A stretch of DNA of 50,654 nt from contig NC_057719.1 of NCBI RefSeq assembly GCF_004010195.1, positions 10,141,529 through 10,192,182 of the forward strand, in the 5' to 3' direction. Within the stretch, counting starts at the first letter, position 1. Every line of letters begins with the position of its first letter. The notes under the pieces are model-generated. The model was not told where the DNA came from, searched no databases, and saw nothing but the letters and a program-made list of their open reading frames with translations. Positions 3,326 through 46,534 of the stretch are shown here, piece after piece. The DNA is from Chiloscyllium plagiosum. Taxonomy: Eukaryota. The translations under genes and the position numbers were made by a program.

Positions 3326-4120
3326 GAACACCATTAAATAACTTAGCTGTATTAGTGACACAAGAAATCAATACTCTCGCCTTAAAGTTTAGTGCAACCT
3401 CACTACACATGAGCTCAAACGGCCATTCATATTACTGGGCTGTATGTCAATTTTGCAACAACATGATAAACCTGTCGAGTGATCCTGCATCATATCTTTG
3501 ATTGGGGCTCGTGGGATATTGCAGTACAGAGATTCCAGAATAGGAAAATACAATATTGTAAATGTCAGACTTCCTATCTGACAATAAATCATAAACCATC
3601 CAACATTTCCTTCAACTCAACACCGGAGGATTGAAGTCAACTTAATTAGTATTTGTCAGAAGCTCTGTACTGTTCCCAGAGACTACCTTCTTAACTGGCT
3701 GCATTTCTTGGCCAAATTAGCTGAGACATAACTTTATTGCCCAGTTCAGTCGAAAGCTCATCTTCCAACCCGATTTCATACTCACTTCTCTCTACTTTAA
3801 TCACACTGCTGTCTTAGCCATAGTTTTATGCCTTGCTACGATGTCTACAGTCTTTCCCTTACTGTTGAACCAGGTTGCTGGATCCAGAAACTTTATTTTT
3901 ATTTCAAAAATATACTTTATTCATAAAGTATTTTGATGGGCTGTACAGTTGGTCATGCCATACATACAGAAACATTCCATTTCTTTGCATACAGAGATCA
4001 GAATTTATCATTAGTATATACCGGTCTGTATGTTTGTCAATCATATGTCCATATATTTAGCTGAGGCGTCAGCAAAGCCCAAATGACTGGGTGGGCCCCC
4101 TGTTCTTAGGCAGGCAGATG

Positions 4121-7100
4121 TTACACGGTGGTCTTTCCCCACCGCACCTTGGCGGCAGCTGCCCCAAGCTTCAACGCGTCCCTCAACACGTAGTCCTGGA
4201 CCTTGGAATGTGCCAGTCTGCAACACTCAGTCGGGGTCAACTCCTTCAGCTGGAAGATCAACAGGTTTCAGACCGTCCAGAGAGCATCTTTCACCGAGTT
4301 GATGGTCCTCCAGGCACAGTTATGTTCGTCTCGGTGTGCGTCCCAGGGAACAGGCCGTAGAGCACGGAATCCTGCGTCACGGCGCTGCTCGGGACGAACC
4401 TCGACAAACACCACTGCATTCCTCTTCAGACTTCTTCTGCATAGGCACATTCCAGAAGGTGATGTGTGACAGTCTCGCCCCCCGCAGCCGCTTCGAGGGC
4501 AGCGTGCAGTGCGGTGCGGCAGAGAGTCCGGGCATGCATAAAAGATCTCACAGGCAGAGCCTTTCTCACCACCAGCCAAGCCATGTCTTGGTGCTTGTTG
4601 GAAAATTCTGGCGATGAGGCATTCTGCCAAATGGCTTTGACAATCTGCTCAGGGAACAGCTCGATAGGATCCGCCCTCTCCTTTTCCCAAAGGGTCTCAA
4701 GGACACTACGTGCTGATCACTTCCTGATGGAGTTGTGGTGAAAGGTGTTTTTCTCCATAAACTTCTCCACGAAGGACAGGTGATACGAAACGGTCCAACT
4801 ACTCGGAGCGTTCCGCGGCAGTGAGGCCAGGTCTATCCTTCGCAACACCGGGGACACGTAGAACCTCAGTACGTAGTGTCACTTGGTGTTTGCGTACCGG
4901 GGATCCACGCACAGCTTGATGCAGCCACACACAAAGGTGGCCATCAGGGTGAGAGTGGCATTGGGTGTATCTTTTCCCCCATTTCCCAGATCTTTATACA
5001 TCGAGTCCCTTCGGACCCAGCCCATCTTTGACCTCCATATAAATTGGAAGATGGCCCGGGTGACTGCAGCGGCACAGGTTCTGGGAATAGGCCAGACCTG
5101 TGCCACATATAACAACAATGACAGTGCCTCACACCTGATGACCAGGTTTTAAACCGCGATGGAGAGCAACCGTAGCTTCCATCTGCCCAGTTTCTGCCTC
5201 ACTTTGCTTATACGCTCCCCCGAGACTTGGCGCACACCCCAGCCCCCTCGAACCAAATACCCAGCACCTTCAGGTGGTCGCCTGACTCCAGATCTGACTG
5301 GGAAGCTATCTGATTCCCACCCGTTGATTGAGACTGCACTGACAATGTTGGTGTAGAGCAGTCTGATCCAATTGCAGATTCCCTCCCCAAAGCCCATTTT
5401 GGAGAGAACATCTCTCATATACCTGTGTGATAACCTGTCACAGGCTTTCTCCTGGTCCAGGCTGATCAGGCAGGTGTCCAACCCCCTGTCCTGCACGTAG
5501 GTGATCATATCCCTGAGGAGCGTGAGACTCTCAGCGATCTTCCTGCCCGGTACAGCACAGGTTTGGTCAGGGTGAATCACCGACCCCAGAGCAGACCTGA
5601 CCTGGTTGGCGATAACTTTTGACAGAATTTTGTGATCCGCATTCAACAGTGAGATTGGTCTCCAATTTCTGAGTTCCTCCCTCTCCCCCTTCCGCTTGTA
5701 GATGAGGGTGATGATGCCTTTTCTCATGGATTCACTCATGGTACCTGCCCGAAGCATACTGACATACACCTCCAGCAGGTCCTGGCCAATCAAGTCCCAC
5801 AGAGCAGAATAGAGCTCGACCGGTAAGCCGTCGCTTCTGGGAGTTTTATTCTTTTCGAAGGACTCGAGGGCCTTGGTCAGCTCGTCCAGAGATAGCGGCT
5901 GGTCCAACCTCTCTCGTGTTCCGTCGGCTACGACCTCCGTGATAGAGGACAGGAACGATTGGGAGGCCGCGCTGTCGGTCGGCTTCGCGTCATACGGACT
6001 GGCATAGAAGGATTTACTGATCCTCATGACGTCAGCCTGAGATGACGTTATCGAGCCATCTTCTTCCTTCAGGCTGCTGAGCACGGAGCTCTCTTTGTGC
6101 ACCTTCTGGAAGAAGAAACATGAGCACGTCTCGTCCTGCTCCACCGAGCGGACCCTGGACTGGAAGAATTTCTAGGAGGCCTCCGCGTCAAAGACCGAGG
6201 CTTGCTGGCCCTTCACCTCCTTGAGGTCCTCTGTGATATCGACCCCCATCATCTGCAGCAGGAGCAGGTTCTGCATACTTTCCTGGAGCTGGGACAGTTT
6301 TCCCCGCCTCTCTCTGATCTCCTGAACACCTTTGAGGATGAAGAACCTTGTGATGTTCCCTTTTACTGTTTCCCACCAGTCCACTGGGGACTCAAAGAGG
6401 GGCTTCATGGTTCTCCAATCTATGTAATCCCTCTTGAGCTCCTCAATGTTACCCAGGGTCAACAGCTTTGTGTTCAGCGTTCCCTTACCAGCCCGCTGCT
6501 CGTCCTGTAGGTGACAGTCAGCCAGCAGGAGGCAGTGGTGAGAGAAGAACACCATCTTGACGTCGGTGGATCTGACCGAGAGCGTTCGGGACACAAACAG
6601 GTAATCTATCCTTGAGCAGATAGACCAGTCTGCCCGTGACCAGGTGTATCTACGCTGTGCTCCATCTGCAGGGGTGCTGAAGACATCGTGCAGCTTGGCA
6701 TCTTTTACCATGTCCATCAGGGCTCTGGACATGGTGTCCAGTTTACTGTCCCCCCCGTCAGATCGTTCATCTGCATCAATGATACAGCTGGAGTCTCCGG
6801 CCAGAATGACCGGCCTGGACGTAGCCAGCAACAGTGGAAGCTGCTGCAGGACGGCCAACCGTTCACTCTTACCCACTGGGGCGTACACATTAATCAGTCT
6901 CAGGGGAGCATTCCTGTACATGACGTCGGCGACGAGGAGGCACCCGCCCACCGCCTCCTTAACCTCGGAGATGGTGAAGTTGCCTCCTTGCAACAGGATA
7001 CCCAGGCCGGAGGCGCGGCTATCGTTGCCCCCCCCGACCAAACTGACGGCCCATGGGTCCACAAGCTCAACCATTTCCTGTAGCTGCTGAGGTGCGGTAT

Positions 7101-7204
7101 CCCACACTCCTGCAGAAACAGGACGTCGGCTTTAACATTGTAGAAACACATTGCGTAGCCGATTTGATGCTACGCACATTGATGCTGGCAACTCTTATCC
7201 CCAT
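4121..7204 (-). pseudogene. Tx1 ORF2: apurinic endonuclease, reverse transcriptase and C-terminal Cys motif; frameshifted and internally deleted
   Basis: MGIRVASINVRS start; LQE, INVYAP, LAGD, RIDY endonuclease motifs; RT motifs NWRPISLLNAD.KIL, HPDQT, LDQEKA.D; C-terminal CPRSGCGG..HL..EC; ends WGKTTV*. Confidence 0.9.
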
Positions 7205-8541
7205 TTTAACAGTTTACAAGGTTAACAGTGTCCATTTACTGCTGGTCTTGCCCCACTGGGGTAGCTGTGTGCATCCCCGTGGTGATGGCAAAATGCTGGA
7301 CCCTCCCAGGGCTGAGGTAGCTGTCCGGCTCCACGCTGGGGCCATTTCCCCGCTCTGGTGTCTTTGGGTCGGGCCCAGGGTCCGCACAGTCCAGTTCTCC
7401 ATCTGACAGCGGGGCTGTCACAGGACCGCTGCCCTCAGTTACCTGGAGCTGTGGGCCGGTGGGTACCTCTTGGTTCTCACCGGGTAGGGGGTGATCTTTA
7501 CCCATCCCCTCAGAGGGATCGTCTTTCCCTGTTTAGGCAGTGCTGCCCTCCTTTCTCCTCGCGGTGCTCTGTCTCTTCCCCTGGTGATGACCCTCCTTGC
7601 GCCAGTCCTCACCATCGGAAGAGCTGCCTGTATCCTCGTCAAGTAGGTAGCGCTCCCCCCTTTAATGGGTGGCTTTGGGGGCCTGGTGAGGTTTCCTCTT
7701 CCTGCTTTTGACAGTAATCCAATCCTCTGCCTCCTTTGTTCCCTCCTCTTCCATTTCCTCTGCCTGTCTTGAAGGAGCTTGGATCGGCTGCTGCACCTCC
7801 CCTCTGTCTGCCGTCTGCTCCACTCCAGCCTGCCCTTCCTTCTGGGTGCCTCCAGGCACCGTTCCCATCCTGTTTTGTGGTACCTTGCTGGTCTTAGGTG
7901 GTCCATGGCTCGTGTTGCCACCTCCAGCCATCTGTGCATAGGTGGCGGCCCCTCATCTTGGGCAGGCCTTGTACATGTGGCCCGCCTCTCCGTGGCCCGC
8001 CTCTCCGCACAGATTACAGTTCTTGGCCTCCTTACATTCCTTGGTTGGGTGGCCTTTCTGCTTGCAGTTTCAACAGACGGTCACCTTACAATCCGCTGCC
8101 ATGTGGCCTGACCTCCCACAGGTTCGGCACACTTTTGGCGGCTCTGCGTATGTCAGGTAACCTCTGCTTCCTCTGATGGCAAAGCTGGAGGGTGGGTGGA
8201 GGATGTTCCCATTGGCATTGACCCTCAGGGTTACCCTGACCTGTCGTGTGTTGGTCCAGATCCCAAAAGGATCGACCACATCGGTGCTTTCTCCCTCAAC
8301 TTGGACGTATCTTCTCAGGAAGGTGAGGACATCTGCTGCTGGGACGTGGGAGTTGTACACATGGATTGTAACACCCTGACTTCTCTTCGCAGGAAGAACA
8401 CATAACGGGACCGTCGACAAGATGGAGAACAGAGGTTCCCCTTCCTTGTCCTTGAAGACCTTCAGGAGCTGCTCACATTTCTTCATGCTCCTGAAGGTCA
8501 CGTCGAAATAGCCTGCCCCTGGGAAATCCTGCACGCAGTAC

Positions 8542-8787
8542 TTTTTTTTAAATTTCAGAAATATACTTTATTCATAAAATAATTTGATGGTCTGTACAGT
8601 TGGTCATGCCATACATACGTAAACGTTTGCATACAGAGATCAGAATTTATCATTTGCATATACAGGTCTGTACGTTTATCAATCATATATCCATATATTT
8701 AGCTGAGGCGTGGGCCCCCTGTTCTTCTTAGGCAGGCAGATGTTACATGGTGGTCTTTCCCCACTGCGCCTTGGCAGTAGCTGCCCC
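8542..8787 (-). mobile_element. 5'-truncated Tx1 3' end (last ORF2 codons, 3' UTR, polyA) nested in host ORF1
   Basis: Highly similar to 3891-4170. TSD aaatcctgca(c/g)gcagtac at 8524-8541 and 8788-8805. Confidence 0.88.
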
Positions 8788-8811
8788 AAATCCTGCAGGC
8801 AGTACACATCC

Positions 8812-9731
8812 TTTTTTTAATTTCAAAATATACTTTATTCTTAGAAATAAATCTTTGGTACTTGTACAATTTGTCATGTCGTTCATAGATATATACATTG
8901 CGTGTCTTAACATTACAAAGAACAGATTGAATTACTCGAATTTATAGTTATCCTGTTTACAGTTCCCTTTATTAACCATCCAGTCTCTTAGTATTTAGCT
9001 GTGGCTTCAGCGGAACCCACCTACTGAGTGGGTGCCCTGTTATACTATAGCAAATGCACCTTTTTTAATCCCAGTGCATGGGGTTACCGTTGTCCATTTG
9101 ACTGTCCTGTCTCTGGGGAAGCTGTCTGCATCCCCATGGTGAGCACGAACTGCTGGACCCTCGCTGGGCTGAGGTAGCTATCCAGGCTCTCATTGGGGTC
9201 ATTTACCTGCTCTGGAGTCATTGAGCCAAGGCAAGGGTCCGCACCGTCCAGTTCTGTGTCTGACAATGGGACTGTCAGAGGATCACAGCTCTCAGTTGTC
9301 TGTACTTGTGGGGCAGTGGGTATCCCCCGGTTCTCACTGGGTGGAGGGTGGACTTCGGGGGGTCTGTTGTTTCCTGGTTGGGAGGAAATGCCCTTCTCTT
9401 TATCTACGGTGCTGATTTTCTCTTCCTGTTTTTAACAGGTATCCACTCCTCTGTCTGCTCGATTACCTTCTCCTCCATTGCTTCCATCTGCCCAGCGAGA
9501 GCTAGGATCAGCTGCTGTGTCTCTCCACTGGTTGCCACCTCTTCCACTCCAGCCTGTTCTTCTTTCTGGGTGCCACCAGACTCTGTTTCCTTGCTGTCTG
9601 GGTGCACATTACTGGTCTTTGGGGGTCCACGGCTCGCATTGCCACCTCCAGCCATCTGTGCATAAGTGGGGTCCCCCCGTCTTGGGCAGGTCTTGTACAT
9701 GTGGCCCGCCTCTCCGCACAGGTTGCAGCTT
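8812..9731 (-). mobile_element. 5'-truncated ORF1-only (HAL1-like) Tx1 derivative nested in host ORF1
   Basis: ORF1 C-terminal half (CNLCGEAGHMYKTCPR...SYLSPARVQQF..MGM, stop at 9084) followed directly by a Tx1-type 3' UTR and polyA. TSD agtacacatcc at 8801-8811 and 9732-9742. Confidence 0.8.
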
Positions 9732-10759
9732 AGTACACATCCGCTGTTTCAAACCTGCAGCACTCCAACAAAATCTTCTTGACAAACACTGTCCGATCGA
9801 CCGGTGTGTGCTCCTCCACCTTCTTCACAGTCACCCTGACTATGTTGCGAATGCCCTGGCCAGGGCTGCGAGCGGCTGCTGAGGCCATAGCTCTGAGGTT
9901 GGCTGGTACCTGAATTGGCGTTAGGCCGAAGCCAGCATAAAGATCCACCAAGAGCAGGTCAGGTCACCACAACCAAACGAACCTTCAATGTCCAATCACG
10001 ATCCAACGATGATCTCCAGCAGCTCTGACGACTCACAACACAAGCCCTGTGGTATCTCCCCCGCCAGCACACGTCCGCTGCGTCGAACCTGCAGCACTCA
10101 AGCAGAATCTCTTCCTCTAGTCCTCAGGAACTACACATATTCCAGGTTGCTGGATCCAGAAATAGCCCCACCAACATTCTGCCTCCAGCCCCTCCACTGT
10201 TACATTCCATGCAAATCCAGTATTGTCATATCATGTGCATACACCTTTAAAGAGGTGCATCTTAAACTCGTATCAATCACTGCATACAACAGCAGGATGG
10301 GATGATTTCTTCCAGGACTCATTAGTCAGTTTGAATCACGAGTGATAGAGATTAGATGTACAATGGTGAGATCCCAGAAAACCTTATCTGTATGTCGTCT
10401 AATTTTAAAATGAATAACTCAATTATCGCTTCACTTATTCTGCTGTGTGATTGGTACTTTTACACTCAATAGATGAATATAACAAGCTCCTTTCATTCCT
10501 TCACACCAAAGTAACAAATCCACAATCTACATTTTAATTTCCTCTCCCTCAATTAAAGATGCAGTCTTTCTCAACATTAAGGGAATCAAGGGGCTAAGTC
10601 AGGAAGGTGAAGTTGAAGAGACTCGCTCTAATTTTTTTGAATGATAGAACAGGCCTTTAAGACACTTCCGTCTCTTCCTGTTCTATAACATTACCCAATG
10701 CTAGCTCAGAAATGTTATCCATCCTCAAGTTCCTCTGCATACCCTCCAACATTGGTTTT

Positions 10760-14775: not shown

Positions 14776-15826
14776 CCCTACTTTAAAAAATCATTATTAG
14801 TTCTTCGAGAAGTACACGTGCAACAAAAATGGCTCCAAATAAAATTGTTGTCAAGGATACCACCATCAAAGTTCTTTTTGTAAGTGTCGAAGGCGAAAGA
14901 ATGAAAAGATTTTTTTTTTATCACATTTTTCATCACCATGTTTATGCTAGCTTCGTAAGATGTGCCATGCAAAAATCCTTCCCGAATCTTCCCTACCTCT
15001 TCAATCTAATTCCCGTTCATGTTCCCAATGCACACCCTTCAGCTTCACAATTTCAGCCCACTGTGAATGCCCCTGCATCATCAATGGGAGATCCTACATC
15101 AACACTGAGAAACTCATATTCCAAACCATTCCATCTCCCAAGACCTCTGGCCAAGCTCAAAAAACACAGAAACAGGCCAATCCCTTTAACCTCAACTACT
15201 TCAATCACCTTTTTAACTCTTCTGGTCCTGCTGTTGTCCATTTCCCCAATCCATGAATTTGCTTTGCACTCTCTGGGATTCACAACTGTTAAACTATGCC
15301 ATAGAGCAAATTATTACGGTAAACTCAACCAAAGGATTCCCACCTCCATAAATGAACAAGTGAAATTGCTGGAGAAACTCAGCAGCTCTGGAGAGAGAAA
15401 CCCAGTTAATGTTTTGAGTCTGGTATAACTCTTCCTCAGAATTTTAGAAACTCTTCACAAAGAGAGGCATGAGAATCCTCATCAGAACATAGCAGAATCA
15501 TCTCAACAGCTAACCCACACACAGAAGATTAGAGAGGTTTCCCTGTGAAGGCTCCAATATGCTACCTCCCTGGGTATCCCAGATGAACACAGACCCTCGA
15601 GCTGTGCAGAAAAAGGGCTGGAGAGACTCTGAGTGCAGGAGATCTGCTGACAAACTGAGGCATTGGCATCAGAGATATGCCCCTTCACTGGCTCACAAAA
15701 TAAAAAGGGACATAAATAAAACTCTCCCCTGCCTGATAATGATGCAGGCAGTGCCTGGGTTGGGAATGGGTTCCATTCTTGAATCCTCTCGCAAGTCAAT
15801 TTGTACGAATGTCAGAACACAATGCA

Positions 15827-16058
15827 GAGTGGAAAAGTGTGGCACTGGAAAAGCACAGCAGGTCAGGCAGCCTCTGAGGAGCAGGAGAGTTGACGTTTTG
15901 GGCATAAGCCCTTCACCAGGAAGGTCTTCATTCTGATGAAGGGCTTTTGCCCAAAATGTCGATTTTCCTGCTCCTCAGATGCTGCCCGACACGCTGAGCT
16001 TTTCCAAGGCCACACTTTTCCATTCTGACTCTCCAGCATCTGCAGTCCTCACTTTCTC
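15827..16058. mobile_element. PLE-derived inverted-pair element
   Basis: Head-to-head arms with decayed hammerhead cores; perfect 15-bp TSD tcagaacacaatgca at 15812-15826 and 16059-16073. Confidence 0.85.
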
Positions 16059-44799: not shown

Positions 44800-46534
44800 T
44801 TGGTGCTGGGGTCTGTTTGGAGGTGGCGGAAGTGACGGCGGATGATGCGCTGTACATGGAGATTGGTGGGGTGGTAGGTGAGGACCAGTGGGGTTCTGTC
44901 CTGGTGGCGGTTGGAGGGGCGGGGCTCAAGGGCGGAGGAGCGGGAAGTGGAGGAGATGCGGTGGAGGGCACCGTCGACCACGTCGGGGGGGGTAATTGCG
45001 GTCCTTGAAGAAGGAGGCCATCTGTGTTGTACGTATTTTGAACTGGTCCTCCTGGGAGCAGATGCGGCGGAGACGAAGGAATTGGGAGAATGGGATGGCG
45101 TTTTTACAGGGGGCAGGATGGGAGGAGGTGTAGTCTAGGTAGCTGTGGGAGTCGGTTGGTTTGTAGTAGATGTCCGTGTTGATTCGGTCGCCTGAGATAG
45201 AAACGGAAAGGTCTAGGAAGGGGAGGGAGGAGTCCGAGACTGTCCAGGTGAATTTGAGGTCGGGGTGGAAGGTGTTAGTGTAGTGGATGAGCTGTTCAAC
45301 CTCCTCGTGGGAGCACGAGGTAGCGCCGATACAGTCATCAATGTAGCGGAGGAAAAGATGGGGGGTGGGGCCAGTGTAGTTGCGGAAGATGGATTGTTCC
45401 ACATACCCTACAAAGAGGCAGGCATAGCTGCGGCCTATGCGGGTGCCCATGGCTACTCCTTTTGTTTGGAGAAAGTGGGAGGATTGGAAAGGAAAGTTGT
45501 TCAGGGTGAGGACCAGTTCGGTCAGTCGAAGGAGGGTGTCGGTGGAAGGGTACTGGGTGGTACGGCGGGAAAGGCAGAAGCGGAGTGCTTTGAGTCCTTC
45601 GTGATGGGGGATGGAGGTGTACAGGGACTGGATGTCCATGGTGAAGATGAGGCGTTGGGGACCGGGGAAGCGGAAGTCCTGGAGGAGGTGGAGGGCGTGG
45701 GTGGTGTCACGAACGTAGGTGGGGAGTTCTTGGACTAATGGGGACAGGACCGTGTCGAGGTATGCCGAGATGTGTTCGGTTGGGCAGGAGCAGGCTGAGA
45801 CGATGGGTCGTGCGGGGGAGTCAGGTTTGTGGATTTTGGGCAGGAGGTAGAAGCGGGCGGTGCGGGGTTGTGGGACTATGAGGTTGGAGGCGGTGGATGG
45901 GAGGTCCCCTGAGGTGATGAGGTTATGGATGGTCTGGGAGATGATGGTTTGGTGGTGGGGGATGGGGTCATGGTCAAAGGGATGGTAGGAGGAGGTATCT
46001 GCGAGCTGGCGTTTGGCCTCAGCGGTGTAAAGGTCAGTGCGCCAGACTACTACTGCGCCTCCCTTGTCAGCTGGTTTGATGGTGAGGTTGGGGTTGGAAC
46101 GGAGGGAGTGGAGGGCTGCGCGTTCCGAGGGTGAGAGGTTGGAGTGGGTGGGAGGGGTGTGGGAGTTCAGGTAGCGGTTAATATCGCGGCGGCAGTTTGC
46201 TATGAAGAGGTCGAGGGCAGGTATGAGGGCAGGTAAGAGGTCTTATGAGATATCCCAATCCTTCAACTTATAGGCTGTCAACTCAGTACACTGTCGGCTA
46301 GCTCTGAGCAAGCAAATGAAAACTGCAAATGATGGAGGAAGGGTTCTGAGCAAGGATCACTCAACCTGAAACATTAACTCTGATTTCTCTCCACAGATGC
46401 TGCCAGACCTGATGAGCCTTTCCAGCAAATTCTGGTTTTGTTTCTGCAAATGAAAGATAGTTCTCCTAAGATTGTTGCTTAGTGGCAGCAGTGACTTAGA
46501 ACCTTCCTCTGACTGTGGGCTTCTTTCACCAGGA

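Follow-up and report, generated by a model that had tools for sequence, protein, structure and literature searches.

An ORF2-less LINE family of HAL1-like design and Tx1-type origin, recognized from a truncated copy in the shark Chiloscyllium plagiosum

Within a decayed Tx1-type LINE of Chiloscyllium plagiosum, the first open reading frame is interrupted by a short retrotransposed segment, here called insert A. Our preferred reading, to which we assign a probability of roughly 0.7, is that insert A is a truncated copy of a multi-copy Tx1 family that lacks ORF2, whose RNA is likely copied by the ORF2 of relatives and is probably coated by the protein of its own ORF1. The ORF1-only family is real, HAL1-like in its design and Tx1-type in its origin, and the individual copy described here, being truncated and frameshifted, is dead. 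All coordinates refer to the window, the whole stretch of 50,654 nucleotides that was analyzed (contig NC_057719.1, positions 10,141,529 to 10,192,182), and are collected in Table 1.

Insert A and the LINE that carries it

Table 1. Features of insert A, insert B and the surrounding host LINE. P0001-P0007 are related shark proteins and X1-X21 are public sequencing runs.
Feature	Positions	Strand	Remarks
Host LINE, near full-length, decayed, Tx1-type	3891..10141	minus	
ORF1-like fragment at host 5' end	10066..10110	minus	82% over 45 nt, E 8e-7
Host ORF1	7206..9888	minus	Carries two RNA-binding domains of the ZCCHC3 type plus zinc knuckles; split by inserts A and B
Host ORF2 (endonuclease, reverse transcriptase)	4121..7204	minus	With stops and frameshifts
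Insert A (ORF1-only family, truncated at its 5' end), inside host ORF1	8812..9731 (reads 9731-8812)	minus	
Target duplication of insert A, 5' copy, 11 bp	9732..9742	minus	Identical to 8801-8811
Target duplication of insert A, 3' copy	8801..8811	minus	
ORF1 upstream piece of insert A	9414..9731	minus	Last zinc knuckle and start of low-complexity tail
Deletion of ~124 nt and frameshift in insert A	9413..9414	minus	Relatives hold extra letters there
ORF1 downstream piece of insert A, stop at 9086-9084	9084..9413	minus	78-84% identical to P0001-P0005
Relic of ancestral ORF1 C-terminus and stop, out of frame	9065..9097	minus	Frame 1 resembles the ends of P0006/P0007 and host 7235-7206
Junction zone, ORF2 missing	9041..9064	minus	Covered in runs X1, X2, X4, X11, X17, X18, X21
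3' UTR of insert A	8822..9045	minus	Contains two poly(A) signals (8973-8968, 8839-8834)
A7 tail of insert A	8812..8818	minus	Read from the sequence
Insert B, host-type ORF2 tail and 3' UTR	8542..8787	minus	215/234 bases (92%) identical to host 3' end

A preliminary description of this DNA had placed insert A between target duplications and given it a poly(A) tail, and both marks are confirmed: the two flanking copies match at 11 of 11 bp, the 11-mer occurs only at these two sites within the window, and seven A residues precede the 3' copy. The same description took the insert to encode the C-terminal half of an ORF1. The three ORF1 motifs that it quoted and the stop codon are present, but the half is not contained in a single reading frame, as the deletion at 9413/9414 splits it in two. 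The upstream piece has a zf-CCHC_2 match at E = 0.0027, which is weaker than the curated cut-off, and is 81-88% identical to five proteins (P0001-P0005) of Chiloscyllium punctatum; past the shift, its frame stops at 9406-9404. The bases missing from insert A are found in its relatives: six contigs of run X1 have loose ends at 9413, one contig of run X11 has letters between the two pieces, and protein P0004 carries 41 extra residues at this point.

As had been proposed, insert A lacks ORF2. The DNA of host ORF2 and its three reading frames, when compared with the insert, gave a single 16-nt match (E = 0.002), located in the ORF1 part of the insert, and nothing else at E < 0.1. Because the relic of the ancestral ORF1 end is retained at 9097-9065, the missing part of ORF2 begins no further than about 24 nt from its start and extends through its end.

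The 3' UTR of insert A had been said to share only islands with that of the host. This is not the case: similarity runs throughout from about 9045 (143 of 196 aligned bases match, or 73%; score of 114, versus a maximum of 49 in 500 shuffles). Given that the ORF1 of insert A has diverged from the host ORF1 to about the same degree (78% identity at the DNA level), divergence of the UTR cannot distinguish a family from a one-off event, and the same equality would be seen if an autonomous sister family had suffered just one deletion. The earlier conclusion that the family evolves separately stands on the multi-copy junction in the reads described below, but the argument from a diverged UTR does not. 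A putative 3' UTR structure shared by three sequences was weak, with an unfavourable covariation term (+0.79), and was rejected as evidence.

The host LINE is itself flanked by an identical target duplication (21 of 21 bp; 10162-10142 and 3890-3870), and taking out inserts A and B reconstructs the pre-insertion site, at which the start of host ORF1 reads uninterrupted. A domain search of ORF2 assigned the endonuclease and the reverse transcriptase (RT) to the L1 group. The best solved relative of the RT is human L1 ORF2p (E = 1.6e-28), with R2 at 1.8e-7; the ESM Atlas named it as a generic RT only, and the endonuclease piece had no sequence match in the PDB. The combination of an ORF1 that has both RNA-binding domains and CCHC knuckles with an L1-group endonuclease and RT fits the Tx1 subgroup; the available part of PMC5203782 regards such ORF1s, where they occur outside mammals, as consistent with Tx1. 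A Tx1-type label fits both the host and insert A; it rests on the type of ORF1 and on the L1-group RT.

Host ORF1 stops early, at 7238-7236; the stop of family type lies at 7208-7206, directly before the ATG of ORF2 at 7204. The related proteins P0006 and P0007 read through the position of the early stop and continue to the stop that abuts ORF2. The gap of about 30 nt between ORF1 and ORF2, noted previously, is therefore genuine in this host copy, where it results from the early stop, but it does not represent the layout of the family. Two further peculiarities of the host were observed. At about 5280 on the minus strand, the SGVR motif of the RT runs directly into the post-RT region, and, therefore, the catalytic part of the host RT appears to be deleted; host ORF1 also contains a 15-nt duplication near 8005-7977.

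Insert B is bounded by an 18-bp duplication (8805-8788 and 8541-8524, 17 of 18 bp matching), and its first nick lies 6 nt from that of insert A in host ORF1. At the same site the 45-nt ORF1-like piece at the host 5' end loses its match to ORF1; beyond the joining site of insert A, similarity is no better than chance, 263 of 500 shuffles scoring as high. Three junctions thus meet in a stretch of host ORF1 some 20 bp long, a clustering that may reflect self-targeting or, alternatively, a nested donor from which transcription read through. Target-sequence preference is common, though not universal, in the Tx1 clade. Counter to a strict target, neither the target of the host itself nor the flank of the X17 copy is related to the ORF1 site, single contigs have nested 3' ends elsewhere in the element, and no fixed target motif was found among the few flanks read. 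We also considered that the host 5' UTR is wholly derived from ORF1, and rejected it, as the match covers only about 50 nt. A 17-nt stretch of the host 5' UTR (10050-10066) may resemble part of U1 snRNA; an Rfam search of 8400-10250 returned four chance-level matches and no snRNA, leaving this stretch uncalled.

ORF1 of the family and its relatives

The five C. punctatum proteins P0001-P0005, located on three contigs of 81, 105 and 75 Mb, form one clade with insert A (support 97/99). They are 78-88% identical to the insert A pieces, in contrast to 45-64% for the host-type proteins P0006 and P0007. All five are represented only as protein records, and in four of them the sequence begins with an internal Met that lies downstream of the RNA-binding domains. 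Their tails are open over 201-222 aa with mutual identities of 87-98%, and four of the C. punctatum proteins stop earlier than the ORF1 of insert A. Among longer proteins, searches with the insert A pieces retrieved hits from C. punctatum only (2 of 126 and 3 of 289 candidates), and a search with P0004 (19 of 1151 candidates) revealed no further member with the family tail and no full-length member.

In P0004, an RNA-binding domain and the knuckles are in frame with the tail, although this protein reaches into the second RNA-binding domain only. Its N-terminal half is 96% identical to that of P0007 and its tail 57%, while the corresponding values for the window host are 78% and 70%. P0004 is therefore a mosaic ORF1, at one locus and possibly as a chimeric gene model.

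Between insert A and the host, the dN/dS values are 0.41 (0.21-0.81) and 0.65 (0.38-1.20), the interval for the tail including 1. Because this comparison spans the time before the loss of ORF2, it leaves the selection undated. Among 20 listed sites, which are too few to decide, 5 of the 13 subfamily-split differences were synonymous, versus 1 of the 7 private ones.

These values bear on an alternative in which an ORF2-less family does move in trans, with an ORF1 that has lost its importance and is carried along as a passenger, the element being comparable to a long SINE. The tail interval that includes 1 would be expected under such relaxation, as would the predominance of protein-changing differences between subfamilies (8 of 13) and the variable position of the ORF1 end. 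However, five loci have retained long open tails of high mutual identity (with the caveat that open frames are more readily annotated), the tail of P0004 is still in frame with its knuckles and an RNA-binding domain, and the tail is of low complexity, where a high dN/dS is expected. We consider a passenger ORF1 unlikely, and favour a family whose ORF1 protein still probably coats its RNA.

One member of the P0006 cluster, P0008, is a 93-aa piece of shark ORF1 that is filed as a Proteus mirabilis protein; the record is probably due to contamination of the P. mirabilis assembly.

Copies and RNA of the ORF2-less junction

The evidence for copies comes from public sequencing runs and not from the assembly of the window, with reads placed from 8 of 24 listed runs. 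Part of insert A is present in 20 of the 24 (8 studies, three organism labels), the largest share being 0.43 of its words. Runs X1 and X2 are DNA-labelled and derive from one sample of organism A, and X17 is from organism B. The junction (9057-9077) is found on 9-14 contigs in X1, with a summed depth of 1,770-2,240, and on 8-13 contigs in X2, with a summed depth of 1,233-1,593; depth is 10-24 in seven of the eight listed X1 pieces and 4-14 in all eight listed X2 pieces. The junction thus has roughly 100 times the depth of a single contig, which suggests a hundred or more junction copies, in order of magnitude, in organism A, the summed depth being uncalibrated and not a copy number. Four alleles of the insert A copy are absent from X2, and, therefore, the runs come from relatives or other individuals and not from the window locus.

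Pieces that bridge the junction with at least 31 letters on each side are X1 record 1, X2 records 21 and 22, and X17 record 1, of which X2 record 22 and X1 record 1, being from a shared sample, may represent one locus. The bridging contigs differ from insert A by 4-13%. X17 record 1 is one 348-nt piece (8811-9158) with 13 differences and no gaps, followed by a different 3' flank; both it and X2 record 17 run on into other sequence at the tail. Pieces from organism C cross with fewer than 31 letters on one side and are suggestive only. The junction is thus not single-copy, and the X17 contig, with the UTR, a flank of its own and no ORF2, shows that copies with the UTR of insert A need not carry ORF2. 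Together with the duplication and tail of insert A, this other flank also marks independent insertions.

Transcripts across the junction were found in X21, a poly(A) RNA run of which about 2 in 100 was read. Between 74 and 86 reads, from 37-50 starts, span the junction, and first mates at insert A are nearly all of one strand (135 versus 2). T-runs occur at 8812 in 178 reads and at 8954 in 103 reads, the latter representing a second poly(A) site (8954-8973), 14 nt behind the second signal and within the family UTR. A second spacer variant, carried by 64 reads, represents a second subfamily. Depth declines beyond 9230, which is what a 3'-end library would give; the reads cover the 3' end of the family, its 5' end and promoter lying outside this coverage. 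Some of the RNA reads may be read-through from host genes, and this may apply to the X17 RNA because the X17 copy sits on a 3.4-kb contig that is mostly flank.

Could an autonomous parent with the same ORF1 and UTR survive, with the ORF2-less copies arising repeatedly by RNA processing (splicing or skipping)? The removal of ORF2 almost exactly from start to stop is what such a process would give, and an ORF2-bearing form could lie among the 620 and 84 rows of loose ends outside those listed. However, X2 depth is of one order over the UTR (1,797 at 8945), the junction and ORF1 (1,395 at 9193), and rises only at the last ~30 bases and at 9146-9175, stretches that are common to sister families. 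Given this flat depth, no large pool of the UTR of insert A on ORF2 is visible, and no ORF2-like loose end was found at 9040-9075 among those listed. Moreover, two spacer variants and the divergence of the bridging contigs indicate long evolution of the joined form. A recurrent origin by RNA processing is therefore improbable.

A one-off internal deletion or template jump, confined to the insert A copy, would be in keeping with deletions occurring locally (insert A has another large one at 9413/9414, and the host its own in the RT), but it is refuted by the recurrence of the junction: many contigs have it, a second organism has it next to a different flank, and it is present in RNA. We give this reading very little credence. 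Still less plausible is multiplication of one deleted element by DNA-level duplication without retrotransposition, since, although flanks are readable for few copies only, insert A is marked by a tail and a target duplication of its own, different sequence follows the tail in both X17 record 1 and X2 record 17, and 29 X2 contigs leave at 8812 (agreement of 0.39; some of them may belong to sister families, given the 80% likeness).

Proposed mobilization and relation to known elements

We propose that ORF2 was lost in a sister family of the host by one ancient deletion, which began no more than ~24 nt from the ORF2 start and ran through to the ORF2 end. Source copies would be about 2 kb long and would have their own 5' end. 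Their RNA is polyadenylated, as shown at the 3' end in a relative, and ORF1 protein would be made in cis from this RNA and probably coat it; by analogy to HAL1, ORF1 may be needed in cis. The RNA would then be reverse-transcribed by the ORF2 of a full-length relative, the host-type family being the candidate helper. We infer such mobilization in trans because ORF2 is missing and the 3' end is shared. Insert A itself would have arisen by target-primed reverse transcription into host ORF1, cut short at the last zinc knuckle. Given that the family appears to be transcribed and spread over several related species, its source copies and helpers should be findable.

The mosaic P0004, at one locus, and the three junctions within ~20 bp of host ORF1 lead us to a more tentative idea: a half-LINE that keeps its old tail and UTR, swaps in the 5' half (the RNA-binding domains, perhaps with the promoter) of a contemporary full-length family, and lands by preference at one site in the ORF1 of its helpers. 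We regard this as possible but doubtful. If true, such an element would remain compatible with its helpers while both borrowing from and disabling them.

In mammals, HAL1 (half-L1) elements keep ORF1 and have lost ORF2 by internal deletion (PMC5753468, PMC3627910, PMC5786205, PMC8535693), and ORF1 has been proposed to act in cis and the ORF2 of a full-length partner in trans (PMC3627910, PMC5786205). The shark family resembles HAL1 in that ORF1 is kept, ORF2 is lost, the 3' UTR and poly(A) are retained, the element is multi-copy, and ORF2 is presumably needed in trans. It differs in descent: HAL1 derives from mammalian L1 and has a Transposase_22-type ORF1 (PMC5203782), whereas the shark ORF1 has RNA-binding and CCHC domains and is Tx1-type. 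No Transposase_22 match was found in the seven pieces examined, which have ZCCHC3-type domains and zinc knuckles instead. The HAL1-like label of the preliminary description is thus apt for the design, ORF1 joined to a 3' UTR without ORF2, but not for the descent. Because the ORF1 is Tx1-type and occurs in a cartilaginous fish, the origin is independent of HAL1. Long-kept ORF1 coding is a feature reported for guinea-pig HAL1.

HeT-A (Jockey clade) and Ag-Sponge (CR1 clade) are likewise ORF1-coding, bipartite, non-autonomous LINEs (PMC5786205), but their clades and hosts differ from those of the shark family. The available part of the same source gives Jockey, L1 and CR1 as source clades and contains no occurrence of Tx1. 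Several features of such elements are seen here: ORF1 is present and ORF2 absent, the junction is multi-copy, and insertions are independent. Tx1L, Keno and Tx1-Mar resemble the host and the shark family in their L1-group RT, RRM/CCHC-type ORF1 and poly(A) tail. The crocodilian Tx1-Mar is reported to mobilize passengers in trans and to prefer sites inside other transposons (PMC4494074); its SINEU passengers are non-coding with snRNA heads, whereas the shark passenger codes for ORF1.

Our literature search, made without most subscription papers, supplements, Repbase and Dfam, found no description of an ORF1-only Tx1 or shark element, and none appears in the available parts of PMC5753468, PMC5786205, PMC4494074, PMC5203782, PMC4455052, PMC3414825, PMC8535693, PMC3627910 and PMC3747384. 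The strategy of keeping ORF1 and borrowing ORF2 is already known, and the Tx1-type case in cartilaginous fish is what is added. It extends the short list of LINE groups that yield ORF1-coding parasites (Jockey, L1 and CR1 in the available part of PMC5786205), and its independent origin with a different ORF1 fold offers a test of the claim of ORF1 in cis and ORF2 in trans, which is largely based on mammalian HAL1. The family also accounts for some shark gene models labelled as "uncharacterized" or ZCCHC3-like.

Elsewhere in the window, the minus strand at 44926-46242 contains a 438-aa open frame with RT-like motifs that is unlike the CR1-type fragments found in other parts of the window, and that looks Penelope-like. 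Inverted repeats of 200-270 nt with about 82% identity lie at 2112-2376 and 15825-16027; they appear to be copies, placed head to head, of a short repeat that is abundant.
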